A DNA stretch of 64,000 bases from an uncultured Hormoscilla sp. (GCA_963921275.4 OZ001293.3:1120001-1184000); one strand, 5' to 3'. Positions 2,764 through 61,624 are shown, counted from the first letter of the stretch. Notes: generated from the sequence alone by a model not told the origin. A program made the numbers and translations.

Positions 2764-3598
<835 letters not shown>

Positions 3599-7905: not shown

Positions 7906-8014
7906 GCATAACCGGTACGAGCCAATAATAACACCGGTGTTAAGAGAGGGATTTTCGGTGTGAAATGGTTTGTCAATCCTATTGGCTATTCTCCTAATCT
8001 GTGTTAACCTAACT

Positions 8015-8178
8015 TAATGTAGTCGGTTCTGATGGGGAACAGCCATCAGAGGTAACGGGGAAAGTTCGGTGCAAGTCCGACCCTGTCCCGCAGCTGTAAT
8101 CAGACAAGTTTGTCTGTAAGTCAGAAGGCCCGCCGATGAAAAGCACAGTAAGTTAAGCATCTGCGAGGTACGGATGAT
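8015..8178 (+). ncRNA. Cobalamin (B12) riboswitch
   Basis: GGTTC...GGGGAAAGTTCGGTGCAAGTCCGA.CTGTCCCGCAGCTGTAA...AAGTCAGAAGGCCCGCC core. Hairpin CATCTGCGAGGTACGGATG covers an SD and ATG. Upstream of hupE/DUF1636/cobW. Confidence 0.92.
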
Positions 8179-10182: not shown

Positions 10183-10490
10183 GTCGGGTGGGTTAGGCGC
10201 GGCGGCGTGAGTAGCTACATAATAAGTTGTGCCTGTAAAAGCGCCGTAACCAAACATCTTCAGAAGTAAGATGCAGTAAGGTGGGTTAGGCGCGGCGGCG
10301 TGAGTAGCTACATAATAAGTTGTGCCTGTAAAAGCGCCGTAACCCACAATCTTCAGTCAGCAACTGGCTGCAACCAGGTGCGTTACGGCGCGAAATACAC
10401 TCAAACTGTCTGTTTCCATAACCGTTGGTCGCGCCTAACGCACCCTACTATCAGGCTAACAAATCACCGGTGGGCGGTGCCCACCCTACA
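10183..10490. repeat. REP-like intergenic repeats (two ~64-bp direct copies plus palindromic units)
   Basis: GTGGGTTAGGCGCGGCGGCG...GCGCCGTAACC occurs twice, followed by GTGGGCGGTGCCCACCCTAC. Confidence 0.7.
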
Positions 10491-10506
10491 AGAAAGAAGA
10501 AAAAAG

Positions 10507-11535
10507 ATGGCAGCTAAAATACCAGTTACTGTGATTACAGGATTTCTCGGCGCAGGCAAAACGACTACCATTCGTCACCTGCTGCAAAATAATCAAGGAC
10601 GCCGCATTGCTGTAGTTGTCAATGAATTTGGCGAAGTTGGTATTGATGGAGAACTTCTGCGTGACTGTCAGGTATGCGACGATGAAGAAAGTGCTAACAT
10701 TGTAGAATTAACAAATGGATGCTTGTGCTGTACGGTGCAGGAAGAGTTCTTTCCCATGATGCAAGAATTGCTTCAGCGTCGCGATAAAATTGATTGTATG
10801 CTGATCGAAACATCAGGGCTAGCTTTGCCGAAACCTTTGGTACAAGCTTTCCGCTGGCCGGAAATTAAAAATGGCGCTACAGTGGATGGTGTTGTGACAG
10901 TGGTAGACTGTGAAGCGGTAGCTAAAGGCACTCTTGCTAGCGATCTTGATGCCCTCAACGATCAACGCCAAGCTGACCCCAATTTAGAACATGAAACTCT
11001 CATTGAGGAACTGTTTGAAGACCAACTGGCTTGTGCGGATATGGTACTGTTAACTAAGGTAGACTTGGTAGATGCTGAAACTCGCAGTAAAGTAGAAGCA
11101 TGGTTGCGATTGCAGTTACCTGCAACGGTGAAAATTGTTCCTTGTAAAAGTGGTGAAATTAGCCCTGACGTGCTATTGGGATTTAATGCCGCTGTGGAGG
11201 ATAACCTGGACTCTCGTCCCAGTCACCATGATACTGAAGAAGAACACGACCACGATGATGAAATAAATTCGGTGAATGTTGTCTGCGATCGCCCCTTCGA
11301 CCCGAAAGCCCTGATAGCCAAATTACGACAGCTAGTCGGACAGCAGGAAATATATCGGATCAAAGGTTTTGTCGATGTTCCCAATAAACCCATGCGCATG
11401 GTGCTGCAAGGGGTGGGCGATCGGGTCGAATCATTCTACGATCGCCCCTGGCAAGCATCGGAGGCCAGGCAAACACGACTGGTGTTCATTGGCCAGGCCC
11501 TCGATCGGGTAACAATTGAGCAAGCTTTGTGCTAA
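10507..11535 (+). CDS. cobW: Cobalamin biosynthesis GTPase CobW (COG0523)
   Basis: KIPVTVITGFLGAGKTT, GCLCC, ETSGLALPKP and a His-rich linker. Confidence 0.93.
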   Translation: MAAKIPVTVITGFLGAGKTTTIRHLLQNNQGRRIAVVVNEFGEVGIDGELLRDCQVCDDEESANIVELTNGCLCCTVQEEFFPMMQELLQRRDKIDCMLIETSGLALPKPLVQAFRWPEIKNGATVDGVVTVVDCEAVAKGTLASDLDALNDQRQADPNLEHETLIEELFEDQLACADMVLLTKVDLVDAETRSKVEAWLRLQLPATVKIVPCKSGEISPDVLLGFNAAVEDNLDSRPSHHDTEEEHDHDDEINSVNVVCDRPFDPKALIAKLRQLVGQQEIYRIKGFVDVPNKPMRMVLQGVGDRVESFYDRPWQASEARQTRLVFIGQALDRVTIEQALC

Positions 11536-17390: not shown

Positions 17391-19669
17391 TCTTCCATGA
17401 TTAATAGAGAAGAATAGCCGATGAAAAAAAATCCTATTACCTTGAAGTTATTGGGTCAGATAGAGGCAACTTTAGCTTTCCAGTTTGGTGCCAACGGTAG
17501 CCCAGTCCAAGCTCAAATAGTACCTGACGCCACCCTGCCAAGTAATTCCCGGGTTACCAGGGATGGCACAAGCTTCACCATTGACGGGGGAACAGTCAGG
17601 GTCCCAACCATTTTCACAGTTTTACTGAATTTTCTGTTCCCACTGGCGCCGAAGCATTCTTCAACAATGCAGAAGGCATTGAGAACATCATTACCCGCGT
17701 TACGGGGGACACAATATCCAATATTGATGGATTAATTCGCGCGGGGGGCGATGCTAACCTGTTTCTCCTTAACCTCAACGGCATTGTTTTTGAATCAAAT
17801 GCCAGACTCGACATCGGTGGTTCGTTTTTTGCCAGTACCGCTGACAGGATGCTGTTTGATGATGGTAGCAGCTTCAGCGCCACAAATCCGGCAAGTAAGC
17901 CATTGCTGACGATTAATGTTCCCATTGGCTTACAATGGAATGGACAGAATCAAGGAACCATTCTAGTAAGAGGCACTGGACAGCATCTCAAGGTTGAAGG
18001 ACGCATAGTTTCACCATCGGTTGTCGGAGCAGGTCAAAGCGACACAGGTCTGCGGGTAAACCCCGGTACGGTAAGACCCTAGCTCTAGTTGGGGGGAATG
18101 TCAGTTTTGATGGTGGGATATTGACAGCACCAGGAGGACGAGTAGAATTAGGTGCTCTCGCCCAAGGAAAGGTTGAGTTCAATCAATTTGACGGCAGTTT
18201 GAACTATGAGGGAGTGGAAAGTTTCGGTGACATCCTACTCGAGAGACAAGCATTAGTTGATGCTAGTGGGGTTGGTGGGAGCGCAATTCAGGTACAAGGA
18301 CGAAGTCTGGAACTCCGGGATGGTTCATTGATTGGTAGTGATAAATATGTAGTGATAGAACATTCCATCCCTCTATTAATCCTTACTTTTCTTAGGAATG
18401 ATATAACAGCTCTTTATCTTAGCCAAATTGATAGCAATGATAAAATATTCTCATGTATAGCCCATCAGAAAAATGCTCTTATGTTATTAGTCAAAAGCGA
18501 GTATAGACTTATGAACACATCATCATCTTTAGGGTCGCGACCCAATTGCCCTTATTGTAATTGTGAGCGAACAGTAAAAAATGGTAGTACTCATAATAAA
18601 AAGCAAAAATATGTAAAAAATCGGCAATAAATTGAAAACCCGACAGCAGGTATCGTCCGAAAAGAAAAAGAATATAGATGAGCTATTACTTGAAAGAATA
18701 GGCAAGTATTGCGCGTCGAGTAAAGCTTTCACAAACCTGGCGTTAATAAAAAATCTGCCGTGAGATAAAGGTTTCAGACAAGCCCAAAGGAAAATTGACT
18801 ATTGAATGTGATGAAATGTGGTCTTGGGAATAAAGAAAACAAACACTTGATACAAAAACAAGAGAAATTGTAGGAGTTGGGCGATCGCAAAAAAATTGTG
18901 GAAATATTTACCTTTATCGACGCATTTTTTTACTTTTTGGGAAGCATATAACACAGTAATACCGAAGTCATAAAGCGGTAGGTAAAGAAACTGGAAAAAC
19001 TAATCATATTGAAAGGTTAAACAACGAGGCAAAGAATTAGTCGCTTGGTTCGGAAAACATTATCATTCTCTAAGAAGAAAATCACGCGATTTGGTATTTT
19101 GTGCATGATTACAGTGCGATTTTTTTTATTGTAAAATGACTTGACACAGGTCCAAAAAAATGGAACACTAGCAGGGTTCCATTAGCCCTGACAACTTTTA
19201 GATGATGGTGGTGAAAGCCCACCCCTCCAGGTGCAGGAGTGACAGCACTCTTCCGACGGTAGCGATGGCATCAATCCGTAAAGCGGGAGAGAAAGGCGCA
19301 ATAACTGGCAGCTTAAACCGGTTACCGTCAAGCAAGTAGTCATGGTGAGCAAAAGCAAAGGCTCATAAGTGTCGTTATACCAAACCAGCGAAAAGGCTGA
19401 TACGCTGGCCCAAAAGGGAAAGGATACAGGTCATTGGCGGTTGTAATTCGACCAATAAGCACTGACAACAAACCCGGCATATAGAGTCCACCTAAAACTA
19501 CGACCAATCATCTAGAGGAACGAAGTAAACCAGGTACATACTCTCAACCACCGGTCGATAGGTTGAGTAGCCACCACAGGCGCAACATCTGCTCTCCGGA
19601 AGGCAGGTTGTATCTGGGAAAGATTTCGAGGAGAAGCCAACGCCTGTCTGTAATGGATAGGATATGCAG

Positions 19670-20612
19670 GTGCGATTCGTTCAGGCGTAAACCGGTGACG
19701 GTGAAAGTCTGGTCTGGTTTCATTTGCTAGACAACTCTGGTTATCATGGGGGTTAAATTCCCTCTCCCCAGGTGTGGGGGGTCGAGGGTACTACCGGTCC
19801 TTAGTGCTGCGGAGTCACATCGCCGTGGTGCTCCGCTAGGACTTAAATGTAGGGTAGCTGGCAGCCTAAGCTAGCAACACCGCGCTTGTTAGATGTTCAT
19901 GGTTAGAACAAGCGAACCTGTGTAAGCCTCGTCACCTATAACCAGCGGAATAAGGCTGATACGCTGGCCCAAAAGGGAAATGGTAGTTAGTGTTGGTAAT
20001 CTGTACTTACTAGCATCGCACTCGAAGAACTCCCGGGGTATAGCAGGAACCTAAAAGCATCGAGAAATGATACCAGGGAACGAAGTAACCTCTTGTGTGC
20101 AGTTCGGCTCAACGGGGCCGAACCAGTTAGATGTACGTCCGCGTAGCGTGCGCGGAGCGCATAGCGCAAGCCACGAGGGGAAGGATGTCCTAAGAAGCAA
20201 ATGCCCGGGGTAATGCCCGTGGATAAGCTGACGTCGGACGGATATGGTAAGAAGCCTTTGGTGAAAGTAGCCCTAATATGTCGCAAAACTTAGGAGAAAT
20301 CCAAAAGTATGAATATGGACTAGAGTCTCAGCCGGGTAAAGTTCAGAGCCCCGATAAATCAGGAATGGGGAAATGTTAGTAAAGAGCGGTTAGACCGGTT
20401 TGCTGAACTACCCTCCGCGAACCTTCCGGAGCTGAAATCATTAACGGTCCAATAGGATTGACCATAAGGGGTAAAATTACAGAGGGTAAGGGGAAACGGG
20501 GTGACCTAATTATTGATGATGATATGCCTAAGGACAAGCCCCAGCGGTGAAAGTCGCAAGTCCGGTTTCGCTCTTGGAGGGTTGGGAAGTGATTCCCAGC
20601 TCGACCCCGACC
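19670..20612 (+). mobile_element. ORF-less group II intron I4 (943 nt) nested in I3 near the DIII/DIV junction
   Basis: GTGCGATTCG...CTCGACCCCGACC. Removal restores GGATATGCAGACGCCCTC, matching sister introns. Confidence 0.92.
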
Positions 20613-20664
20613 ACGCCCTCACGGTAACGTTAATTGTAAAGTTGTAAGTAGCAATACACAGGTC

Positions 20665-22442
20665 ATGAGCACGATTTCCGAATCGATGAATGAATGAAAG
20701 GATACCCCCTGGCCTCGGCTGGAGCGGGTAGTCTTTAAGTTGCAAAAGCGAATTTACAGAGCGGCAATGGAAGGCGTAATAAGCGACCAGTTCGCAGACT
20801 CCAAAGGTTACTGGTAAAATCCCGGGCTGCCAAAAGTCTAGCGGTACGACAGGTAACTCAAGACAACCAGGGAAAGAAGACGGCGGGAGTGGACAGTGTA
20901 AAAGCACTGACCCCAAAGCAACGCTCAGAACTGGTAGGACGGATTGAAATCTCAAACAAGGCCAAACCTACACGTCGTGTATGGATACCAAAGCCGGGGA
21001 GAGAGGAGAAGCGTCCTTTAGGAATACCAACGATGTACGACCGTGCGACACAGGGACTCCTCAAGATTGCGCTCGAACCCGAATGGGAAGCGTACATGGA
21101 AGGGAACTCCTATGGATTCAGACCGGGTCGGGGATGCCACGATGCAATCAAGGCAATATTTAACAGCATCAGATATAAACCCAAGTGGGTATTGGATGCC
21201 GATATTGCAAAATGTTTCGATAAGATTGACCACAAAGCGCTAATAAAAAAATTAAATACAACGTCACCAATCCGTAAGCAGATACGGGCATGGTTAAAAG
21301 CCGGGGTGATAGACAAAGGAGAATGGCATGCAACCGAAGCGGGAACACCCCAAGGGGGAGTCATATCACCACTACTAGCCAACATAGCCCTACATGGACT
21401 AGAGGAGGCAGTAAAGGAACTCGCCAGGACACAAAAAGAAAAGCAAAAGCTGACAGTAGTCAGGTATGCTGATGACTTTGTGGTAATGCATGAAGATAGG
21501 GGAATGATAGACAGAGCGCAGATAGTGGTGGCAGAATGGCTAAAGGGAATAGGGCTAGAATTGAAAGCCGAGAAGACAAAAATAGCTCATACGCTAAAAG
21601 GAGAAAGCCCGGGGTTTGACTTCCTGGGTTTCAAAGTAAGGCAATATGAGATAGGTAAATACAGAACCGGCAAGTCAACCAACGGAACACCCCTAGGATT
21701 CAAAACCCTAATCAAACCCAGTAATAAGTCCATAGGGAAGCATAAAGAACGGCTATCAGAAATGGTGGCCAGCCATAAAGCAGCACCACAAGCAGCCTTA
21801 ATAAGTAAGCTAAACCCGATAATACGGGGATGGTCAAACTATTATAGGACAGTGGTAAGTAAAGAAACATACAGCTACATGGACCACTACCTATGGACCA
21901 TTCTCTGGCAGTGGGCAAAAAGGAGACATCCCAATAAATCCAGTCATTGGATAGCTCGTAAGTACTGGTCCCTGAGTGAGAACGGTAAATGGCGATTCCG
22001 GTGCCAAATAGGAGAGGAAGAAATAACGCTGTACAGACACTCCGAAACTGAGATAATCAGGCACATAAAAGTGAAAGGTACAGCAAGCCCATATGACGGG
22101 AACCTTACATATTGGAGTACGAGATTAGGCAAAAGCCCCGAGCTAAATAAGAGGGTAGCAACGCTACTCAAGAGACAAAAGGGAAAGTGCCAACAATGCG
22201 GATTAACGTTTATGGATGGTGACAAGTGGGAAGTTGACCATATCAAGCCCCTCTCATTAGGGGGTAAAAACCAGTACGACAACCTACAGTTACTACACAA
22301 ACATTGCCACGATATAAAGACTGCCAGCGATGGTAGTCACAGCCGTACCCATGACAAGGGTGGCGTTACTGAGGAGCCGGATGATGCGAAAGTATCAAGT
22401 CCGGTTTTGGAGACGAGTCGGAGGGGTGACCCTCTGGCTTAG
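20665..22442 (+). pseudogene. ltrA: Intron-encoded RT/maturase/HNH with an N-terminal nonsense codon and a +2 frameshift; 20889-22442 is open
   Basis: TGG>TGA at codon 11 relative to the I6 protein; YADD and HNH motifs intact. Confidence 0.85.
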
Positions 22443-22894
22443 TTTAATACAAATGCTTGTCGGGTTAGTTGTGCCATCACTACATGTTTATCACTACCCC
22501 CATTGATATTTCAAGTCTGCTGGGAAGAGATTTCTGTCAAGTGAGTCAAGATAGTTCTTTCGTCATCACCGGACGGGCGGGTTACCTGGGAGTCCTAGGG
22601 ACTATCTTACTGGTAACCTTGTGAGAGTTGGCTTGGTAGACCCAGTCATAGGGGGCAATACTTCTGAATCTACCTCTGTCGATATATCTCGTCAGACTTG
22701 GCTGGGTGTTGACAACAGAGAAAGGTCTGGGGCGCACAGTCCCTATATAGGGGCATCTGGTCAAATTGTCGAAGCGACGGGTTGGATACGGCATCCCGAT
22801 GGGACGATCGAGCTAGTTGCCTATCTCGGGCCATGAGTAGTCCCGGGTTAAAACCTGTTGAGTGCAGCGATCTGAGATAATGCTCAATGTAAAT

Positions 22895-23121: not shown

Positions 23122-24147
23122 GAATGAAATAGCCCTGCCGATCTGTCCAGTTGATAAACCTCTAGCCATCCCCGATCGGGATCGAAGATAGCATAAGTAG
23201 GAAGAAGCAGGATCTGCTCGTAGTAGTACCATTTTCCTGGGGGATGTTTGGATTGTGCGATGAGTTCTAGCCTAACGTAGTCAAATACGGAACGCTAGCC
23301 TAGGAAACTAGGAACTCTGATATTCATGGGGGTTAAATTCCCTCTCCCCAGGCGCGGGGGTAACCGCGTGAGGTGCTGCGGAGTAACATCACCGTGGTGC
23401 CTCCCGAGGACTTAAATGTAGGATAGCTGACAGCCTAAGTCGGTGACGCCGCGCTTGTTAGATGTCCAAGGTCAGAACAAGCAAATTCATGTAAGCCTCG
23501 TCACATCCAACCAGCGAAATAAGGCTTTATGCGCTGGCCCAAAAGGGAAAGTAGTTAGTATTGGTTATTATCCATGACCAATATCGTGCTCGAAGAACTA
23601 CCGGGGTAAAGTGGAGACCTAAAGGCATCGCGCTTCGGATATCAGGGAACGAAGTAACTACTCGTGTACTGTCCGATCGGACCAGTCAGATGTGAAGCGC
23701 AAGTCACGGGTAGAGAGATGGCCCAAGAAGCAAATGCCTGGAGTAATGTCTAGGATAAGCAGACGTGCGGTGAGGGTGGGTGATAGTAGGAAGTCTCGGG
23801 TAAAAGTAGCTCTAAAACGTTATCAGCCCTTCACTGCGAAGTGATGAGGAATAAATTACTGGTAAAACGGACGTGAAAATGGTGATACTAAAGGTTATCC
23901 GGCAGCGCCACTCACCAACCAGTGAAGGAGCAAAATCGCATGAGACAAGGGACAATGAGAGTAATGTGCGATTCGTTTAGTGTAAACCACCGGCGATAAG
24001 TCGATGGGGGACCACTGGCAGGGTTCCATCAGCCCTGACAACTTCTAGATGATGGTGGTGAAAGTCCACCCCTCCAGGTGCAGGAGTGACAGCACTTACC
24101 CGACGGTAGCGATGGCATCAATCCGTAAAGCGGGTAAGAAAGGCGCA

Positions 24148-25089
24148 GTGCGAATCGTTTTGGCGTAAGTCTGAAATATGGCGATCGCCGGGCTGGTTAA
24201 TACCAGCAACTCTGGTCATCATGGGGTTCAATTCCCCTTCCCCCAGGTACGGGGGTGACCGCGTGAGGTGCTGCGGAGTAACATTACCGTGGTGCCTCCC
24301 GAGGACAAATGTAGGATAAGGTCTCAGCCCAGAGACCGACGCCGCATGGCTGCGCCACGCTGCGCGATCGGAAAGAGGCTCATGGTTAGAGCAAGCGAAT
24401 CCCTGTAAGCATCGTCATCTTAAACAAGCGAAAAGAGGCTGACACGCTTGGTGCAAAATGCGCACGCAGTCCGCGTATCAGTGGTTGCACGTCACTGATA
24501 TCGTACCCGAAATGACTGCCGGTGTATAGGGGAGACCTAAAAGCCTCGTGAAATGATACCAGGGAACGTTCCGGACAAGAGCGGTGCTGTCCAGATGGAC
24601 AAGTCAGATGTGCGTCCGCGTAGCGTGCGCGCAGCGCCTAGCGCATGCCCGCGTGGGGAGGGAGGTCCTAAGAAGCTAATGCCCGGGGTAATGCCTGTGG
24701 ATATGCAGACGTAGGACGGATATGGTAAAAAGCTCTAGGAGATAGTAGCCCTCTAAACGTGCTTAACCAGTGGCAACACTAGGTAGTAATGATGGACTGA
24801 AATCCTAACCGGGTAAAAAATTTAGAGGCCCCATACGGGCACCTGTTAGTAAAGAACGGTCATAGTGGTTTTCTAGTTCTCCCCCGTAAACCTTCCGGAG
24901 TTAGGTACTCAACTAGTTCATGACTGACCATAAAGGGGCTATATTTCATAGGGCAAGGGACAACGGGAGTAATCCCTAGTAATCCTACCCGTGACAAGGG
25001 TTTACCAACCAGTAGCCGTGTGCGGTGAAAGTCGCTCTTCAGGTTCCGAATGGGAGGATTGTCCCGCGAGGGACAGCTCGACCCCGACC
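24148..25089 (+). mobile_element. ORF-less group II intron I7 (942 nt) nested in DI of I6
   Basis: GTGCGAATCG...CGACCCCGACC. Removal restores AAGGCGCAATAACTGG, as in I3. Confidence 0.92.
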
Positions 25090-25512
25090 ATAACTGGTAG
25101 CCTGAACCAGTTACCGCCAAGCAAGTAGTCATGGTGAGCGAAAGCAAAGACTCATATAAGTGTCGTTACATTGAACCAGCGAAAAGGCTGATGCGCTGGC
25201 CCAAAAGGGAAAGGATACAGGTCATTGGCGGTTGTTTTTCCGACCAATAAGCACTGACAATAAACCCGGCATAGAAAGTCCACCTAAAACTACGACCAAT
25301 CATCTAGAGGAACGAAGTAAACCAGGTACATACTCTCAACCACAGGTCGATAGGTTGAGTAGCCACCACAGGCGCAACATCTGCTTTTATTTGGCAGGTT
25401 GTATCTGGGAGAGATTTCGTGGAGAAGCTAACGCCCTTCTGTAATGGACGGGATATGCTGACGCCCTCACGGTAACGTCAATTGTGAAGTTGTAAGTAGC
25501 AATGCATACGTC

Positions 25513-27291
25513 ATGAGCACGATCTCCGAATCGATGAATGAATGGAAGGATACCCCCTGGCGAAAGTTGGATCGGGTAGTCTTTAAGTTGCAAAAACGAA
25601 TTTACAGAGCGGCAATGGAAGGCAATAAGCGAACGGTTCGCAGACTCCAAAGGTTACTGGTAAAATCCCGGGCTGCCAAAAGTCTAGCGGTACGACAGGT
25701 AACTCAAGACAACCAGGGAAAGAAGACAGCGGGAGTGGACGGTGTAAAAGCACTGACCCCAAAGCAACGCTTAGAACTGGTAGGACAAATTGAAATCTCA
25801 AACAAGGCCAAACCTACACGTCGTGTATGGATACCAAAACCAGGGAGAGACGAAAAGCGTCCACTAGGAATACCAACGATGTACGACCGGGCGACACAAG
25901 GACTCCTCAAAATTGCGCTTGAACCCGAATGGGAGGCGCATATGGAAGGAAACTCCTATGGTTTCAGACCGGGTAGGGGATGTCACGATGCAATACAGGC
26001 AATATTCGGAAGCATCAAACAAAAATCAAAGTGGGTATTGGATGCTGATATTGCAAAATGTTTTGACAAGATAGACCACAGGGCGCTACTGGAAAAACTG
26101 AATACAACATCACCCATTCCTAGACAAATACGGGCATGGTTAAAAGCCGGTGTGATGGACAAAGGGGAGTGGCACGCAACCGAGGCGGGAACGCCCCAAG
26201 GGGGTGTCATATCCCCACTGCTAGCCAACATAGCCCTCCACGGGTTAGAGGAGGCAGTAAAGAAACTCGCTATGACACAAAGGGAAAAGCAGAAGCTAAC
26301 AGTAGTTAGATATGCAGACGACTTTGTGATAATGCACGAGGATAGGGAGATGATAGACAGAGCGCAGACAGTGGTAGCAGAGTGGCTAAAAGGAATGGGG
26401 TTAGAGCTGAAAGCCGAAAAGACAAAGATAGCCCACACACTAATCGAAGAAAACCCGGGGTTTGATTTCCTAGGATTCAACGTAAGGCAACATCAGGTGG
26501 GAAAACACAGAACCGGCAAATCAACTCAGGGAACACCCCTAGGCTACAAAACCCTAATCAAACCCAGTAAAAAGTCCATAGGGAAACATAAAGAACGGTT
26601 ATCAGAAGTGGTAACTAGCCATAAAACAATACCGCAAGAGGCCTTGATAAGTAGGCTAAACCCAATAATACGGGGATGGTCAAACTATTACAGGACAGTG
26701 GTAAGTAAGGAAACTTACAACGATATGGATAAATACCTATGGAACATCCTATGGCAATGGGCCAAAAGGAGGCACCCTAATAAGTCAAGTCACTGGATAG
26801 CCCGTAAGTACTGGTCCGTAGACCAGGATGGTAAATGGCGATTCCGATGTAAGACAGGAGAGGGAGAGATAACGCTGCGCAAACACTCCGAAACTGAGAT
26901 AGTCAGACACGTAAAAGTGAAAGGAATAGCAAGCCCATATGACGGGAACCTTACATATTGGAGTACAAGGTTAGGCAAAAACCCCGAATTGAGTAAGAGG
27001 GTAGCAACGCTACTTAAGAAGCAAAAAGGAAAATGCCAACACTGCGGACTAACATTCAAGGACAGTGACAAATGGGAAGTTGACCAGATCAAGCCCCTTT
27101 CATTAGGAGGTAAGGACCGGTATGACAACCTACAATTACTGCACAAGCATTGCCACGACTCAAAGACTGTCAACGATGGCAGCAAAAACAGCCGTACCCA
27201 TGACAAGGGTGATGTTGCCGAGGAGCCGGATGAGGTGAAAGTCTCACGTCCGGTTCTGAAGACGAGTCGGTCCGGTGACGGACTGGCTTAG
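25513..27291 (+). CDS. ltrA: Intact group II intron RT/maturase/HNH protein (592 aa)
   Basis: Full RT0-7 with YADD, X domain and CxxC/HNH region; HNH His is replaced (VDQI). Confidence 0.95.
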   Translation: MSTISESMNEWKDTPWRKLDRVVFKLQKRIYRAAMEGNKRTVRRLQRLLVKSRAAKSLAVRQVTQDNQGKKTAGVDGVKALTPKQRLELVGQIEISNKAKPTRRVWIPKPGRDEKRPLGIPTMYDRATQGLLKIALEPEWEAHMEGNSYGFRPGRGCHDAIQAIFGSIKQKSKWVLDADIAKCFDKIDHRALLEKLNTTSPIPRQIRAWLKAGVMDKGEWHATEAGTPQGGVISPLLANIALHGLEEAVKKLAMTQREKQKLTVVRYADDFVIMHEDREMIDRAQTVVAEWLKGMGLELKAEKTKIAHTLIEENPGFDFLGFNVRQHQVGKHRTGKSTQGTPLGYKTLIKPSKKSIGKHKERLSEVVTSHKTIPQEALISRLNPIIRGWSNYYRTVVSKETYNDMDKYLWNILWQWAKRRHPNKSSHWIARKYWSVDQDGKWRFRCKTGEGEITLRKHSETEIVRHVKVKGIASPYDGNLTYWSTRLGKNPELSKRVATLLKKQKGKCQHCGLTFKDSDKWEVDQIKPLSLGGKDRYDNLQLLHKHCHDSKTVNDGSKNSRTHDKGDVAEEPDEVKVSRPVLKTSRSGDGLA

Positions 27292-28041
27292 TTTAATCTC
27301 TAGTAATCCTACCATTGACTTGGGCCTACTACCCAGTAGCCGTGTGCGGTGAAAGTCGCATGCACGGTTTCGAATGGGAGGGTTGGAAAGCGATTTCCAG
27401 CTCGACCCCTAATTAATCGAGTATTCGCCACCTTCGGTGTCCGACAAAAAACTCCATCGCGATTATTGGCACTTCTCCTTCCCTGTGGGGGGTGTAGCTT
27501 CTGTGTCCCTCGGGTAGTGCGAGTAGCGCTCCCGAGGGACACAGAAGACGAGTTTGGTTCGTCCGGTTGGGGGGGATGACCGATCGCACGTAAAACCAAT
27601 CCGGCGCTAAAGAAACTATTTTTCCATCTACAGTAGCGCAGATATCGCAGTTAGTACCGATTAATGCCTGGGGTAAAATGCGTCCAGCGATTCCCAAGCT
27701 TTCGGTTAACGCTGCTGCTAGCGGGGGTTGATTGAAGTTGTCAACGGGGTCGTCTGGTATAGGAAAATCAGGAGGTAATTTCTCCCAAATGATTATCGGT
27801 TTACTGATAGTTATGGCCATGATAATCTTTCCCCCGTGCTGTTATCATTATTATGAGGGAGGAGGTGCGATTCGTTTCGGTATAAATCAGAAATGATGAA
27901 ATCCGGGTTGGGCGCAAGCTCAACAACTCAGGTCCGGAATGGGGGTTCAATTCCCCTCCCCCGCGGGGGTGACACCAGACCTCGGTGCTGCGTCCTAACA
28001 TCGCCCCCGGTGCTGAGCGAGGTCTTAAATATAGGATTAAA

Positions 28042-30709
28042 CTAAGCCAACGGGTCACCCCGCCGACTCGTCTTCAGAACCGGACGTGAGACTTTCACCT
28101 CATCCGGCTCCTCAGTTTCGCCATCCTTGTCATGGATACGGCCTTTGTCACCATCTCTGGCAGACTTTACATCATGGCAATAATCATGCAGCAACTGTAG
28201 GTTGGTATACCAGTCTTTACCTCCTTTAGAAACTGGTAGAATATGGTCAACCTCCCATTTGTCGCCATCTTTGAATTTCAGTCCGCAGTGCACACACTTA
28301 CCATCCTGCTCTTTTAGCAGTCTGATAACTCTAGCGCTCACATCCGGGCTTTTTCTCAGTCTTTTGCTCCAATAAACCAGATTACCGTCAAACGGGCTAG
28401 CTGTCCCCTTAACCTTTACGTGTCTGTGCGATTCGTTCTAGCCTAACGTGGTCAAACACGGAACGCTAGCCCGGTTTCATTAGCCGGGAACTCTGACCGC
28501 ATGGGGGTTAAATTCCCCTCCCCCCAGGTACGGGGGTGACACCGGTCCTCGGTGCTACGAAGCGACATCATCGTGGTGCTAAGCGAGGACTCAAATGTAG
28601 GATAACTGGCAGCCTAAGCCGGTGACGCCGCTAGGAAAGATATCCAAGGTTAGAGCAGGCAAACATGTGCAAGCCTCGTTATAAGGAACCAGCGAAATAA
28701 GGCTATATGCGCTGGCCTAAAAAGGAAATGGTAGCTAGTATTAGTTTTAGACTCTGGCTAATATAGTACTCAAATAGCTCCCGGGGTATAGTGTGGACCT
28801 AAAGGTATCGCGAAATGTTGTTAGGGAACGAAGTAACCTCTCGTGTGCTGTCCATCAGGACAAGTTAGATGTTAAGCGCAAGCCACGGGGGGAGGGATGG
28901 CCCAAGAAGCGAATGCCCGGGGTAATTCCTGGGATAACATCTACAGTAATGTAGATGATGCTGGGTAGCCAGCGCTGACGTGGGTCGGTGATACTAGGAA
29001 GCTGCTGGAATGAGTAATCCTAAAAAGCCACGGAACTAATCCGAAACGCAAGTGGAGGATAAGGTATGGATAACTGGTAAAACTGACTTGAAAATGGTGA
29101 TACTAACGGTTATCAGAACAACCACTCGCTAAACCAGGAAAGGGAAGAAAAGACAGGCGGCAAGGGCTAACGGAAGTAATTCCTATTAAGTCTACCTATG
29201 AAAAGGGCCTAGTACCCAGTAGCCGGATGCGGTGAAAATCGCAAGTCCGGTTCCTCAAGGGAGGGTCGGGAAGCGATTCCCGGCTCGACCCCATCCGATT
29301 ATTTCAGTTTCAGAGTATCGGTTTAGCTTCATTCCTCCATCTTCTTTAGACTTGCCAGCGAACCTCCACCGGTCTTTCCCGGTCATACCCCAGTACTTAC
29401 TAGCAATCCATTTGCCCGTTTTGTTAGGATGTCTTCTCTTTGCCCATCGCCATAACAACTTCCATAAGTAGTTATCCATAGAGCTGTAAGTTTCTTTACT
29501 TACCACCGTCCTATAATAGTTGCTCCATCCCCTTATCATCGGGTTTAGTCTTGCTATTAAGGCCGTTTGCGGTGCCCCTTTATGGCGGCGAACTATCTCT
29601 GATAGCTGCTCTTTATGATTCCTTATGGATTTATCGCTAGGCTTGATTAGGGTCTTGAATCCTAGGGGGGTTCCGTTACAGAGTTTGCCGCTTCTGTGTT
29701 TCCCTACTTTATATTGTCGGATATTGAACCCTAAGAAGTCAAATCCAGGGCTCTCTCCTTCCAATGTGTGGGATATCTTCGTTTTCTCGGCTTTTTGCTC
29801 CAGCCCTATTCCCTTCAACCACTCCTCAATCACTCCTTGAGCTTCCTCAATCATCGACCGGTCATTATGTATTACCACAAAGTCATCCGCATATCTTACT
29901 ACGGTTAACTTCTCCTTCTCTCTTTTTGTGTGAGCGAGACCCATTACTACCCCTTCCAGCCCATGTAAAGCTATATTGGCTAGTAATGGAGATATAACCC
30001 CACCTTGGGGAGTTCCGGCTTCTGTGGATTCCATCCTTCCCCGGTCCATCACCCCAGCTTTTAGCCATGCCCGTATTTGTTTACGGATTGGTGACGTAGT
30101 ATTCAATTTCTTTAGGAGCGCGGAATGGTCAATTTCGTCGAAACACTTCGCAATATCCGCATCTAACACCCATTTCGATTTTTGACTGATGCTAGCGAAT
30201 ATCGCTGCAACTGCATCATGACATCCCCTACCTGGTCTAAACCCGTAGGAATTGGCTTCCATATACGCTTCCCATTCAGGCTCTAGCGCTTCTTTAACCA
30301 ATCCCTGAAGTGCGCGGTCGTGCATCGTTGGTATTCCTAATGGCCGCTTCTCCTCCCTTCGTGGCTTCGGTATCCACACTCTTCGTGTGGCTTTTGCCTT
30401 CGCCTTTCGAGTAACTTTGATTTGACCTACCAGTTCGATACGTTCTTTTGGGGTCAGTGCTTTCACACCATCCACACCAGCCGTCTTCTTTCCCTGGTTT
30501 TGTTGTGTTACCTGCCGTACCGCTATCATCTTCGCGGACCATGACCTATTTAGTAATCCTTGGAGCTTACGAACCTTCTGCTTATTACCTTCCAGTGCCG
30601 CTCTGTAAATTCGCTTTTGCAGCTTAAAAACTATCCTTTCCAGCTTTCGCCAGGCGACAGTCTTCCATTCATACTCTTGTCTTTCGACTAAGTTCCGTGA
30701 CATATTCAC
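28042..30709 (-). pseudogene. ltrA: Intron-encoded RT/maturase/HNH interrupted by antisense intron I10
   Basis: Removing 28426-29296 rejoins SETEII|RHVKVKG in frame. Confidence 0.9.
28426..29296 (+). mobile_element. ORF-less group II intron I10 (871 nt), antisense within the I9 ORF
   Basis: GTGCGATTCG...CTCGACCCCATCC; boundaries fixed by the host reading frame. Confidence 0.93.
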
Positions 30710-31071: not shown

Positions 31072-31906
<835 letters not shown>

Positions 31907-32961
31907 TACGCTCATCATAGTTACTTGCTCGACGATGACCGGTCTAGGCTCCCAGCCATAGCGCCTTTCCTTCCCGCTTCACGGATTGATGCCATCGCTA
32001 CCGTGGGGAGGGTGCTGTCACTCCTGCACCTGGAGGGGCGGGCTTTCACCACCATCACCTGTAAGTTCTCGGGACTTACGAAATCCCGGTAGCGGTCCCC
32101 CTCCTTGACTTGTGTCAAGTTAGTTTACGCTAAACGAATCGCACATAAACCCTAGCCTAAAGGGTGACTAGGAAAGAAGTCCATGGTTAGAACAAGGGAA
32201 TCCCTGTAAGCGTCGTAAACATTAACAAGCGAAAAAGGCGCTCCACCCTTGGTGCAAAATGCGCAAGCAGTCCGCGTATCAGTATTATTCTTTTACTGAT
32301 ATCGTACCCTCAATAACTGTCGGCGTATAGGGGAGACCTAAAGGCTTCGCGAAATGATACCTGCCAACGAAGTAACCCCCGTGATTCTATCCGCAAGGAT
32401 AAGTCAGATGTGAAGCGCATGGTCACGTGGGGAGGGATGTCCTAAAAAGCTAATGCCCGGAGTAATGCCTGGGATATGCCCACGTCGGACGGTGATAGTA
32501 GGATGTTCTGGGAGAAAGTAGCTCTCTAAAAGTGCTGTACCGGTGTATCGACCCACCAGGTAGTAATGTGGACTAAAATCCTATCCAGGTAAAAAACAGG
32601 GGGTACGGGCACCTGTTAGTAAAGAGCGGTTCTGGTGGTTTACCAGTTTATCCCCCGCTCACCTTCCGGAGGTAGGTAGTCAAATAGTCCCTCAGACCAC
32701 CATAAAGGAGCCAAATTTCATGGGGCAAGGGACAACGGGAGTAATCCCTAGTAATTCTGTCAGTGACAGTGACCTACTACCCACAAGTAGCCTGGTGCGG
32801 TGAAAGTCGCTCTTCAGGTTCGGAATGGTCGGGTCGGGGGGTGACCCCTGGATCGACCCCGATCAGCCCTTGCCCGTCCTTCCCTCCTTGTCCTTTAGCC
32901 TTATTTTTTTCAGCCAGCGATAGTTAGGGACGATCGCTTCTCAAAAGCTATCCTATAGGAA

Positions 32962-50009: not shown

Positions 50010-51772
50010 ACCTAGGTTTTCTTGGCACGGATAAAATACAACTGTTGATATAGAGTTCCATCTTTTTCTATAAAGGGGGATGGTTCTCTTTCTCTATCTG
50101 CTACTTTTTGATAGCTTTGCACAAACTCTCTGTGATAGTTAGCTAGGGGAACATTAACTCTACGGACAACTGCCCAATTTGCATCGCCTCGTTCTTCCCA
50201 GTTAATAAAATAGTCTAAGGATTGTCGCCATCACTTTGAATTCCTTTCCCCCAGTATTTCTCCATTAACCGATAGGTTAGCCTCGGACCATTTTTACTGG
50301 TAGCGATAAACAGAATTTCTCCTTCTGGTGCTAGATAGGAGCTTCCCTCGGCAATGAGAGTATCCATTATCAGTCTACCGCGATCGCCATTGCGGTTCCA
50401 CTCTCCGCCCCGAAATTCGTGGGCAGACTTAAGTCTTGCGTGCAATTGCTCTTCCGTATCAGGGAGTGCTGGAGGATTGAGGTAAACGCGGTCAATTTTA
50501 CCTGGTCGGGGTCGAGCTGGGAATCACTCCCCAACCCTCCAAGAGCGGAACCGGGCTTGCGACTTTCACCGCACCCGGCTACTGGGCAGTAGGGCCTTGT
50601 CATTGGTAGGATTACTGGGGATTACTCCCGTTGTCCCTCATCTCATGTAATTTCTCCCCTTTCCTGGTTGGTAAGTGGCGCTGCCGGATAACCTTTAGTA
50701 TTACCAATTTATCTGAGTCCGTTTCACCAGTTATCCCACCTTCGCATGCTAGGTATTGGGGCGTATTAGGGTTACTTTAGCCCGAGATTTCCTACTGTCA
50801 CCGACCCCTGTTTGCTTATCCCAGGCATTAATTAGGGCTTTTGCTTCTTGGGCCATCCCTCCCACCGTAGCTTGCGCTTCACATCTGACTGGTCTCGGTA
50901 GACAGCACACGATGGGTTACTTCGTTCCCTAGTATCATTTCACGATGCTTTTAGGTTCCTACTATACCCCGGGAGTTCTTTGAGTACGTTATTAGCCAGA
51001 TAGAAGAGCTAATACTAACTACCATTTCCCTTTTTTTTGGGCAAGCGCATAAGCCTTATTCCGCTGGTTCTAGTTAACGAGGTTTACATAGGTTCGCTTG
51101 TTCTAACCATTAGCATCTTTCCTAGCGGCGTCACCGGCTTAGGCTGCCAGTTATCCTACATTTAAGTCCTCGGGAGGCACCACGGCGATGTCGCTCCGTA
51201 GCACCTCCGACCGGTAGTACCCTCGACCCCCGTACCTGGGGAGGGGGAATTGAACCCCCATGATTACCAGAGTTCCTAATTTCTTAGGCTAGCGTTCCGT
51301 GTTTGACTACGTTAGACTAGAACGAATCGCACTCAATCTCTCGATTCCCTTTAACCGCAGCAAAGCTGTTGGACTGGAAACTTTGGAAATCCTTTGGGTT
51401 AAGACCATTCAGTTCCCAATTACGCTGGGCTAGGGAAACAGCATAGGGATTTAGTTCAGTACAAATTACCTTGGCTGCACCGCATTTACCAGCAACTATA
51501 CCGAACATTCCCGATCCCCCAGCAAAATCCATCACCACCTTCCCTGTCAAATCATCAGCAGCTATTAGCTGGCACATGGTCAGAGAAAATAGCGAAGAAG
51601 GTGTCCAGGCATTGGGATGGGTTTCTAGTAATATATCTAAGTCATTACTTAGACTATATTTGACAATTGTACCAGTCTCTAGGGACTGATAGTCAGTGTT
51701 ACTGTCTGCGTCATAGGTAATGATTTGCTTCTGTTCAGAAAATTTTTCTAAATCAAGTTTTGACATGTTCAT
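50010..51772 (-). CDS. SAM-dependent methyltransferase split by intron I13 (exons 51772-51333 and 50503 onward); 3' part has apparent homopolymer frameshifts
   Basis: DFAGGSG motif I in exon 1. The spliced junction reads REIE|GKIDRVYLNPPALP (NPP motif). Confidence 0.82.
50504..51332 (-). mobile_element. ORF-less group II intron I13 (829 nt), sense in the methyltransferase
   Basis: GTGCGATTCG...CTCGACCCCGACC. EBS1 TCTATC vs exon end GATTGA (5/6). Confidence 0.93.
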
Positions 51773-59877: not shown

Positions 59878-61624
59878 ACGGTCCGCGGACGGCCCGAAAA
59901 ATCGGCACATTCTCGGCTCGCCATTGTGCCCCCGGTAATTTCACCCTTAACCCAATTTGTTTCACCAGGGACTCAACCCGACCAGAGCCAATCGAGTGCC
60001 GAGCTGCCTGCCCGTTCGCGCAGCGGCCCGACGCCAGGAGGGCTAGCCTGGTAGTCAATGATGCGCGTCTGATGGTGCTTCAAGTAGTTGATCAACCCTG
60101 TGGCTCCCCGACATTGCTGTTGGCGCAGATAACTAATCGCCCTCTGGGTCTCCCCTCGCCACAGGAGTGCACGGTCCGCGGACGGCCCGAAAAATCGGAT
60201 CTGCACGGTCCGCGGACGGCCCGAAAAATCGGATTGAGCCGGTGTCCCTTGCACCTTATTGGCATTTTCCATTAGGTGATACCAATCGAGCACTTCGATA
60301 CGTTGTTCTGGTGTCCCGATACCACTGAAAATGTTCCACACCCCATCATGACCATCTCCGAGACCGGTGAACTGCGCCCCTAGGGGCTGGGCATTCACCC
60401 ACTCAAGCAGCCCTTGATTATCCTTGAAGAAAGCCACACTGCCTTGCTCATGGACATTTAAGGCTTTGTATTCTCGCCACTCACCAGGTTGACCCTCCAC
60501 GGTCCGCGGACGGCCCGAAAAATCGGTACGAAGGCGAATCATGCCGCCATCCAAGCTGAGCTCCTGAATCGGTTCAGCTATCTCGGTCGGGGTCGAGCTG
60601 GTACTCACGTACCAACCCTCCAAGAGCGAAACCTGAAGAGCGACTTTTACCGCACACGGCTACTGGTTGGTAAGCTGCTGTCATCAGTAGGATTACTGGG
60701 GGTTACCCCCGTTGTCCCTTACCCTTTGAAATTTTACCCCTTATGGTCAATCCTATTGGACCGTTTAAGTACTTAGCTCCGGAAGGTTCGCGGAGGATAG
60801 TTCAGCAAACCATACTCGCCGCTCTTTACTAACATCTTCCCCATTCTGCTTTCCGCTTTTCGTAGGGGCTCTGAACTTTACCTGGCTAAGATTTGAATCC
60901 AAGATTCGTACTTTTGGAATTTCTTCCTAGTTCTGTGACATTAAGGTTACTTTTCCCAAGGGTGTCTTACCATATCCGTCCTACGTCTGCATATCCACAA
61001 GCATTACCCCGGGCGTTGGCTTCTTAGGACATCCTTCCTCTTCGTGGCTTGCGCTTTACATCTAACTTGTCCAAATGGGGACAGCTCACGAGAGGTTACT
61101 CCGTTCCCTGGTATCATTTCGCGATGCTTTTAGGTTCCTACTATACCCCGAGAGTTCTTTGAGTACGTTATTAGCCAGAGGCAAGAGCTAATACTAACTA
61201 CCATTTCCCTTTTTGGGCAAGCGCATAAGCCTTCTTCCGCTGGTTCTGGTTAACGAGGTTTACATAGGTTCGCTTGTTCTAACCATTAACATCTTTCCTA
61301 GCGGCGTCACCGGCTTAGGCTGCCAGTTATCCTACATTTAAGTCCTCGCTCCACACCACGGTGATGTGACTCCGCAGCACCTCCGACCGGTAGTACCCTC
61401 GACCCCCGTACCTGGGGAAGGGGAATTTAACCCCCATGATAACCAGAGTTATCTGGCTGATAGAGCCAGACCCGACTTTCACCTACTGGCTTATGCCGGA
61501 ACGAATCGCACTACCTCAGACCAGTCCTCTCGTTGAACAAAGCGTTGGAGCGTACTGTGGGAGATGCTCACCCCAGTCAGCATCGCGAGATCTTTTACGG
61601 TCCGCGGACGGCCCGAAAAATCGG
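59878..61624. repeat. Five identical 28-nt repeats ACGGTCCGCGGACGGCCCGAAAAATCGG (59878, 60171, 60205, 60499, 61597)
   Basis: Direct reading; all lie within the transposase gene. Confidence 0.92.
60585..61511 (-). mobile_element. ORF-less group II intron I14 (927 nt), sense in the transposase
   Basis: GTGCGATTCG...CTCGACCCCGACC. Removal gives in-frame REDWSEV|EIAEPIQ. EBS1 TGCCTC pairs with exon end GAGGTA. Confidence 0.93.

Follow-up and report, generated by a model that had tools for sequence, protein, structure and literature searches.

Publications on group II introns give their consensus as 5′GUGYG...AY3′ (PMC4424553), describe a contact between the penultimate A and G1 in model introns (PMC3669008, PMC4238363) and quote 7–8 nt as the normal distance between the branch A and the 3′ splice site (Stabell 2007, PMC1865049). 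The consensus has known exceptions. RmInt1 of Sinorhizobium meliloti (class D, IIB3) ends in CC, a mutant in which its penultimate C is changed to A behaves about like the wild type, and the penultimate pyrimidine is called unique to RmInt1 in that work (PMC4238363). In class B introns with a 3′ extension ("domain VII"), as described for B.c.I4, the 3′ splice site lies downstream of the one predicted from the domain VI (DVI) consensus, with a shift of 53–56 nt, an extra stem-loop and no canonical γ–γ′ or IBS3 pairing possible at the site used (PMC1865049). ORF-less introns were rated rare in bacteria by a 2015 review (PMC4424553). In the cyanobacterium Thermosynechococcus elongatus, the ORF-less TeI3 and ORF-bearing TeI4 introns (CL/IIB1), 28 copies in all, include ORF-less introns that have multiplied into families with diverged EBS and are mobilized in trans by related intron-encoded proteins (IEPs) (PMC2882425).

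Here we describe introns of an uncultured Hormoscilla sp., starting from a stretch of 64,000 nucleotides, hereafter the window (C1:1120001-1184000). They are very probably ORF-less, chloroplast-like IIB introns whose 3′ end lies 4 nt after a CCCC motif and which would be spliced and reverse-spliced as GUGCG...A-CCCC-NNNY. With the canonical group II end they have in common the GUGCG start, domain V (DV), the bulged A, a γ-paired terminal pyrimidine and the 8 nt that follow the A; they differ from it in a penultimate C, present in 343 of 397 3′ ends, and in a tail of 5 nt instead of ~3 after the basal helix. The nearest biological parallel is TeI3/TeI4, again a set of cyanobacterial ORF-less and ORF-bearing IIB introns; the 28 copies reported there stand against ~400 ORF-less and ~89 RT-bearing copies here. 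With RmInt1 only the penultimate C is in common. RmInt1 belongs to class D and has its own En-less IEP, whereas relatives of the present introns encode RT-X-HNH proteins, and because that IEP contains an En domain the introns are otherwise not RmInt1-like; moreover, the change is found here in ORF-less introns, with several tails (ATCC, GACT, GACC) and in hundreds of copies. In contrast to B.c.I4, the shift amounts to 1–2 nt with γ–γ′ intact, and the structured segment of ~50–70 nt that follows DVI in the class B extension is absent, the intron ending 8 nt past the branch A. Since AY is a consensus with known exceptions such as RmInt1, ends without AY do not exclude membership of group II, and the variation seen here is rare but not unprecedented. 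Neither these introns nor any non-AY family of cyanobacteria was found described in the limited collection of literature searched.

Group II Introns of the Window

Two sorts of group II intron are present in the window, an ORF-bearing one with a DVI ending in ...A-GTTT-AAT and an ORF-less one ending in ...GA-CCCC plus four bases. Nine ORF-less tails follow an invariant DVI 3′ strand (...TCGA-CCCC), and re-reading of the sequence reproduced exactly the list given in the initial annotation: GACC in I4, I7, I13 and I14 (CCCC ending at 20608 and 25085 on the plus strand and at 50508 and 60589 on the minus strand), GACT in I2 and I11 (2768 and 31076, minus), ATCC in I10 (29292, plus), TAAT in I5 (27409, plus) and GATC in I8 (32860, plus). 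The Rfam model RF00029 matches I13 and seven other copies in the window at or over its gathering score of 40; I8 (tail at 32861–32864, plus) reaches 29.4 bits, has bases opposite the branch A that could pair with it in the alignment, and looks like a decayed copy. The Rfam D1–D4 models gave no match in the window at E <= 1.

The feature at 50495–50520 on the minus strand is the 3′ end of I13, an ORF-less intron of 829 nt (50504–51332, minus; GTGCG...CCCCGACC) that interrupts a class I methyltransferase gene in the sense direction. Its 5′ end GUGCG occupies 51328–51332, DV lies at 50549–50580 (RF00029, 41.9 bits; helix paired in 92% across 18 sequences), and the tail GACC covers 50504–50507, with the penultimate C at 50505 and the terminal C, γ′, at 50504. 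The host gene consists of exon 1 (51333–51772, minus; ...GNREIE), which carries the precomputed Pfam assignments PF06325 and PF05175, and exon 2 (50215–50503, minus; GKIDRVYLNPP...). A 72-aa ORF (50012–50230, minus) overlaps the end of exon 2 in another frame, and in it the methyltransferase reading seems to carry on past the exon 2 stop; a frameshift or a separate small gene could account for this.

Among the other ORF-less copies, I14 (927 nt, 60585–61511, minus) lies in a transposase gene, I2 and I11 measure 835 nt each (2764–3598 and 31072–31906, both minus), and I10 (871 nt, 28426–29296, plus) is antisense in an intron-encoded RT gene. I5 (23255–27413, plus), antisense in a Uma2-family gene, is the outer ORF-less intron of a nested set: it encloses an ORF-bearing intron ending at 27297, which in turn encloses the ORF-less 3′ end of I7 (25089). 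The tail of I4 (20609–20612, plus) is likewise nested in an ORF-bearing intron, its 3′ flank matching DIII of the ORF-bearing family. Nesting is deep at 23255–29296 and 19000–22448. In the ORF-bearing introns (801–2420, 20889–22448 and 25513–27297, all plus) the RT ORF extends through domains V and VI to a stop 6 nt short of the intron end, the middle A of this TAG being the bulged branch A. The window also carries a cobalamin riboswitch (RF00174, 59.9 bits; 8007–8151, plus) upstream of a CobW-family gene (10300–11535).

Census of the Genome

A blastn search with I13 against the 7.03-Mb genome from which the window comes returned 606 HSPs with 290 5′ ends and 397 3′ ends. The 5′ ends read GTGCGA in 287 cases, preceded by a variable base. 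After GACCCC, the tails of the 397 3′ ends are ATCC (147), GACT (109), GACC (70) and TAAT (40), together with minor forms; the last base is C or T in 395, the penultimate base is C in 343 and A in 48+1, and the group II consensus terminus AY occurs in only 48. Pairing of the ends gave 254 simple full-length copies, among them 123 of 871 nt and 63 of 835 nt. The full-length copies occupy 227 unique sites (122 for ATCC, 75 for GACT, 9 for GACC) and include 61 identical copies of the 871-nt ATCC intron; these numbers, and candidate EBS1 sequences that change with the IBS1 of each family, suggest recent mobility.

Besides 397 ORF-less 3′ ends and 89 RT C-termini, the census gave at least 484 kb of intron-derived DNA, or 6.9% of the genome. 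The group II intron load of this genome is extreme; the top count in a 2022 survey is 101 introns per genome (PMC8919778). Two or three 871-nt ATCC introns also occur in head-to-tail arrays (C1:5447656-5450268 and 824938-826675), in which each intron begins directly after the ...CCCCATCC of the previous one with no base between. The 871-nt intron bears its own homing site within DIV, and this site accounts for 710 exact matches in the empty-site search, nearly all in other intron copies.

Position of the 3′ End

That the ORF-less introns end 4 nt after CCCC, mostly without AY, had been proposed in the initial annotation, and as a boundary in DNA it is established by four independent lines of evidence, namely the conservation of the flank, empty sites, host reading frames and the γ–γ′ pair. 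Across the 397 3′ ends, positions +1 to +4 after CCCC are invariant within subfamilies: when the ends are grouped on their first three tail bases, +4 is C in 147/147 members of the ATC group and C or T, according to subfamily, in the GAC group. Position +5 is biased to A (102/147 in the ATC group and 134/182 in the GAC group), a partial conservation like that of IBS1 positions, and from +6 onward the flank has no bias. Counted over unique insertion sites, the first exon base is A at 88/122 ATCC and 60/75 GACT sites. At I13 it is the A at 50503 (minus), the presumed IBS3.

In the empty-site search, for which an exact 30-nt paralogous match was required, 19 unique insertion sites qualified. Twelve of them admit only an insert running from G1 to CCCC+4, five are ambiguous but compatible with it, and two fit these boundaries only if a one-base difference between paralogues is assumed. 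The extra base thus belongs to the intron's own 3′ terminus, as the comparison of sister introns had already indicated. For I13 the boundary follows uniquely from a sister copy elsewhere in the genome, 99% identical to it, with 34 paralogous empty-site matches; the site of I11, common to several copies, has a unique solution from 14 exact matches at two empty loci, and I10 has six paralogous empty sites.

Host reading frames give the same answer. All three frames are covered when 3, 4 or 5 nt beyond CCCC are taken out, and at 34 of the 227 unique sites the junction is flanked on either side by an ORF of at least 100 codons. In 32 of these 34 the frame continues only when 4 nt are removed, including 18/18 insertions in sense orientation; no site accepts 3 nt only, a single site accepts only 5 nt, and another accepts 4 as well as 5. 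The four window genes from which the removed length had originally been read, encoding the methyltransferase, the transposase (I14; SEV|EIAEP), the RT (I10; EII|RHVK) and the Uma2-family protein (I5; YSIK|SKHPPGKW), are indeed all continuous only with 4 nt removed. As evidence for splicing, this reading holds for the first two of them: the RT and Uma2 hosts lie on the strand opposite the intron and therefore count as empty-site evidence. Antisense insertions, which make up 16 of the 34 in long ORFs genome-wide and are represented in the window by I10 and I5, are not spliceable from the host mRNA and inactivate the host genes.

For the methyltransferase, an uninterrupted orthologue (P0003, 79% identical) spans the junction as GNREIEGKVDRIYLNPP, REIEGKVDRIYLNPP (...REIEGK...). 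The alignment with such an orthologue, proposed at the outset as a check, fits the removal of 4 nt after CCCC and excludes an intron AGUGCG...GAC, from which IAGK would be expected. A single query for the DNA of this orthologue in five related genomes gave no match. Contigs of unrecorded kind from four sequencing runs break inside the repeat, and none of them joins the two exons or shows an intron-less allele, an outcome that speaks neither for nor against splicing. The last position of RF00029 falls on the nearest AY in each match, 1–2 nt before the end placed here; at I13 the match stops at 50505, on ...GAC.

Terminal Base and Exon Pairings

The fourth line of evidence comes from the terminal base itself. 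In a MAFFT alignment of 137 unique copies, 1353 columns were scored for complementarity to the last intron base. The highest-scoring column, which lies between DII and DIII directly 5′ of GA, forms a Watson–Crick pair with the last base in 132/137 copies (G-C 71, A-T 61), narrowly above a runner-up column with 129. The same top column complements position +3 in 71/137 copies and any further tail or exon position in 45 at most. We regard this top column as γ (in I13 the purine at 50858, minus, in the J2/3 context GGGAG-R-GAT), and its place directly 5′ of GA in J2/3 is presumably the same as in the yeast ai5-γ intron. All 20 sequence clusters keep the γ–γ′ pair, few individual exceptions aside (5/137 unique copies are without it), but the subfamilies are related and the covariation rests on few independent changes. 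γ is G in all four GACC clusters and A in all six GACT clusters; it is also G in relatives ending in TAAC and A in the ORF-bearing family with AAT ends. An intron end at GAC would leave the entire GACT family with an A·C mismatch at γ–γ′. The idea of a relaxed terminal base, with which the unusual ends had first been explained, is contradicted by these data, since this base is a pyrimidine in 395/397 ends and paired with γ in 132/137 copies; the base that deviates is the penultimate one.

Candidate exon-binding sequences were read from the alignments, not from a fold. For the ATCC, GACT and GACC families, respectively, the putative EBS1 column contains AGACTC, TGCACT and TCTATC (the last at 50999–51004, minus, in I13), each complementary to the consensus of its own family's 5′ exon at −6 to −1, and the EBS2 candidate of the ATCC family, AAGGTT, complements the exon consensus of that family. 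A U directly 5′ of the EBS1 candidate could equally serve an IIA-like δ pairing, and no EBS3 was located by reading of the alignment. Between the tail and the DV–DVI linker no covariation was seen in the 18-sequence alignment. In I13 the tail could also pair with the DVI 5′ strand (GGTTGGGG/CCCCGACC), but this pairing is specific to I13 and was rejected because it is not conserved in other subfamilies.

Domain VI and the Presumed Branch Point

The DVI alignment comprised 18 sequences, 8 from the window, 5 from a congener and 5 from other genera. The helix (50509–50541, minus, in I13) comprises 13 pairs, compensatory changes occur in 8, and pairing extends to 95.7% of the cells; 0/500 shuffles reach the observed values, and slid controls are paired in 34–52%. 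All 18 sequences have an invariant bulged A, unpaired and beside a G that faces an A, and in I13 the bulged A, at 50512 (minus), is presumed to be the branch point. The helix below the bulge consists of three invariant G-C pairs, reduced to two in I13 and the GACC introns akin to it, after which come a single unpaired C and the tail of four bases.

In 18/18 of the aligned sequences, 8 nt come after the bulged A; the resident ORF-bearing introns (...A GTTT AAT) have 7 at this place and the RF00029 consensus 6. Compared with these residents, the branch A accordingly lies a position farther from the 3′ splice site, as had been claimed. The "shifted geometry" deduced from this comparison stands as far as the difference from the residents goes. 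It goes too far as a peculiarity of ORF-less introns, because relatives in other genera that end in canonical TAAC or TAAT, two of them ORF-bearing, share the spacing, and 8 nt lies within the quoted normal distance of 7–8 nt, at its long end, and is no new geometry.

Relatives and Possible Protein Partners

Of 201 genomes sampled across the order, 6 contain the DV/DVI pattern of these introns, with 307 matches in this genome, 68 in a congener and single copies in four other genera; a sample of 401 genomes from the phylum yielded 2 with the pattern, one of them being this genome. Outside the genus the tails are TAAC in three genomes (two with a full RT-maturase-HNH ORF), TAAT in one and GACC in one. 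The spacing of A, CCCC and four bases thus coexists with canonical AY in relatives, which argues that it is a trait of the lineage and that the penultimate C is derived. The single GACC copy lies in a genome of another family (G052:C1:3888399-3891457) and has two ORFs of transposase-like appearance interrupting it upstream of DV.

Introns of this DV/DVI pattern in two genomes (G128 and G197) encode a CL-type IEP with RT, X/maturase and HNH domains. Its best PDB match is 6ME0_C (E 2e-86), and chain C of 6ME0, which we take to be the T.el4h IEP, is the best solved-structure match for both RT lineages, that of the relatives and that of the residents. The resident IEPs carry PF01844, the IEP of the relatives has an HNH-type motif at its end, and between the resident RT and that of the G128 relative the identity is 54%. 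Among the 89 RT C-termini in the genome, 80 adjoin the ...TTAGTTTAAY ends of the ORF-bearing family and none adjoins a DVI of the ORF-less type. Hence the lineage has no ORF-bearing member in this genome and needs to borrow its protein; that the resident RT, of a 54%-identical lineage, mobilizes it in trans is an assumption.

Proposed Mechanism and Alternatives

The explanation that we consider very probable is that the ORF-less introns would be excised, and re-inserted by reverse splicing, as a unit GUGCG...A-CCCC-NNNY, with GUGCG used as the 5′ end in both directions. The 3′ splice site would be fixed partly by the constant 8 nt from the presumed branch A and partly by a Watson–Crick γ–γ′ pair that joins the J2/3 purine 5′ of GA to the last base (C or U), and the first exon base, usually A, would probably be paired with EBS3. 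Reverse splicing inserts the excised RNA, so the identical tails at 122, 75 and 9 unique sites imply that this RNA ended at +4, and the same site would be the one used in splicing. The 8-nt spacing would have been inherited from an ORF-bearing lineage ending in canonical UAAY, and in the three large subfamilies (ATCC, GACT, GACC) C would have taken the place of the penultimate A, a change that appears to have stopped neither splicing nor mobility. The contact between G1 and the penultimate base may have been substituted by a G1-C contact or may be dispensable. Splicing and mobilization would proceed in trans, presumably by the RT-maturase-HNH protein of the ~80–90 resident ORF-bearing introns.

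A bolder reading, which we regard as doubtful, takes the change from A to C at the penultimate position not as neutral drift but as a rewiring of the second-step active site, for example by a G1-C Watson–Crick pair or by complete loss of the contact, that arose in an ORF-less lineage and helped it to spread. If the contact were lost, the 3′ site would be held by γ–γ′, EBS3 and the longer tail. Were the rewiring real, these introns would represent the most prolific bacterial group II family so far, with ~400 copies and, together with the ORF-bearing family, ~7% of the genome, and the "A" of AY would be dispensable in protein-assisted IIB splicing.

It is less probable, and on the whole unlikely, that the +4 site is used by a hydrolytic or other pathway without branching at the bulged A, which would deprive the distance from this A to the 3′ splice site of mechanistic meaning. 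Efficient retrohoming normally proceeds via lariat RNA. The weak helix of 2–3 bp below the A in some subfamilies could disfavour branching, but the bulged A and the flanking GA/CCCC are invariant in 18/18 diverse copies and in nearly all of the 397 ends, and this invariance argues for selection on the branch site.

Slightly more improbable still is the possibility that the copies are dead repeats, no longer spliced, whose boundaries record past retrotransposition or spread at the DNA level and whose present 3′ ends are inactive. Such a state could be read from the short basal DVI helix, from decayed copies such as I8 and from the antisense orientation of 16/34 insertions in long ORFs, where splicing could not rescue the host gene. 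The tails were, however, already ATCC, GACT or GACC at insertion, as their identity at the unique sites indicates, 61 copies are identical, the γ–γ′ and DVI pairs are maintained, and the frame is exactly restored at all 18 sense-oriented insertions in long ORFs.

Canonical ends, with the introns stopping at the nearest AY (GAC|, AT| or GAT|) and the next one or two bases being exon selected by IBS3, would agree with the last position of RF00029 in each match and with the bias of the base after the tail, by which exon positions can be conserved, but they can hardly be upheld against an invariant +4 (147/147) where real exon positions are conserved to 70–86%, 12 empty sites that exclude them, 0/34 junction-spanning ORFs that work with 3 nt only, an orthologue with IEGK in place of the IAGK or frameshift predicted, and the A·C mismatch that the GACT family would acquire at γ–γ′.

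Conclusion

The overall view of 3′ splice-site choice in group II introns is left unchanged by these introns, with their end 4 nt after CCCC. For annotation the consequences are direct, as an AY rule or a DV/DVI model places the 3′ end of ~350 introns 1–2 nt early and thereby frameshifts every reconstructed host gene. The ends without AY are backed by hundreds of natural "mobility assays" provided by the genome itself, and the γ–γ′ covariation offers specialists a clean, natural example of this interaction. The pattern also suggests that splicing in vivo may do without the contact between G1 and the penultimate base.
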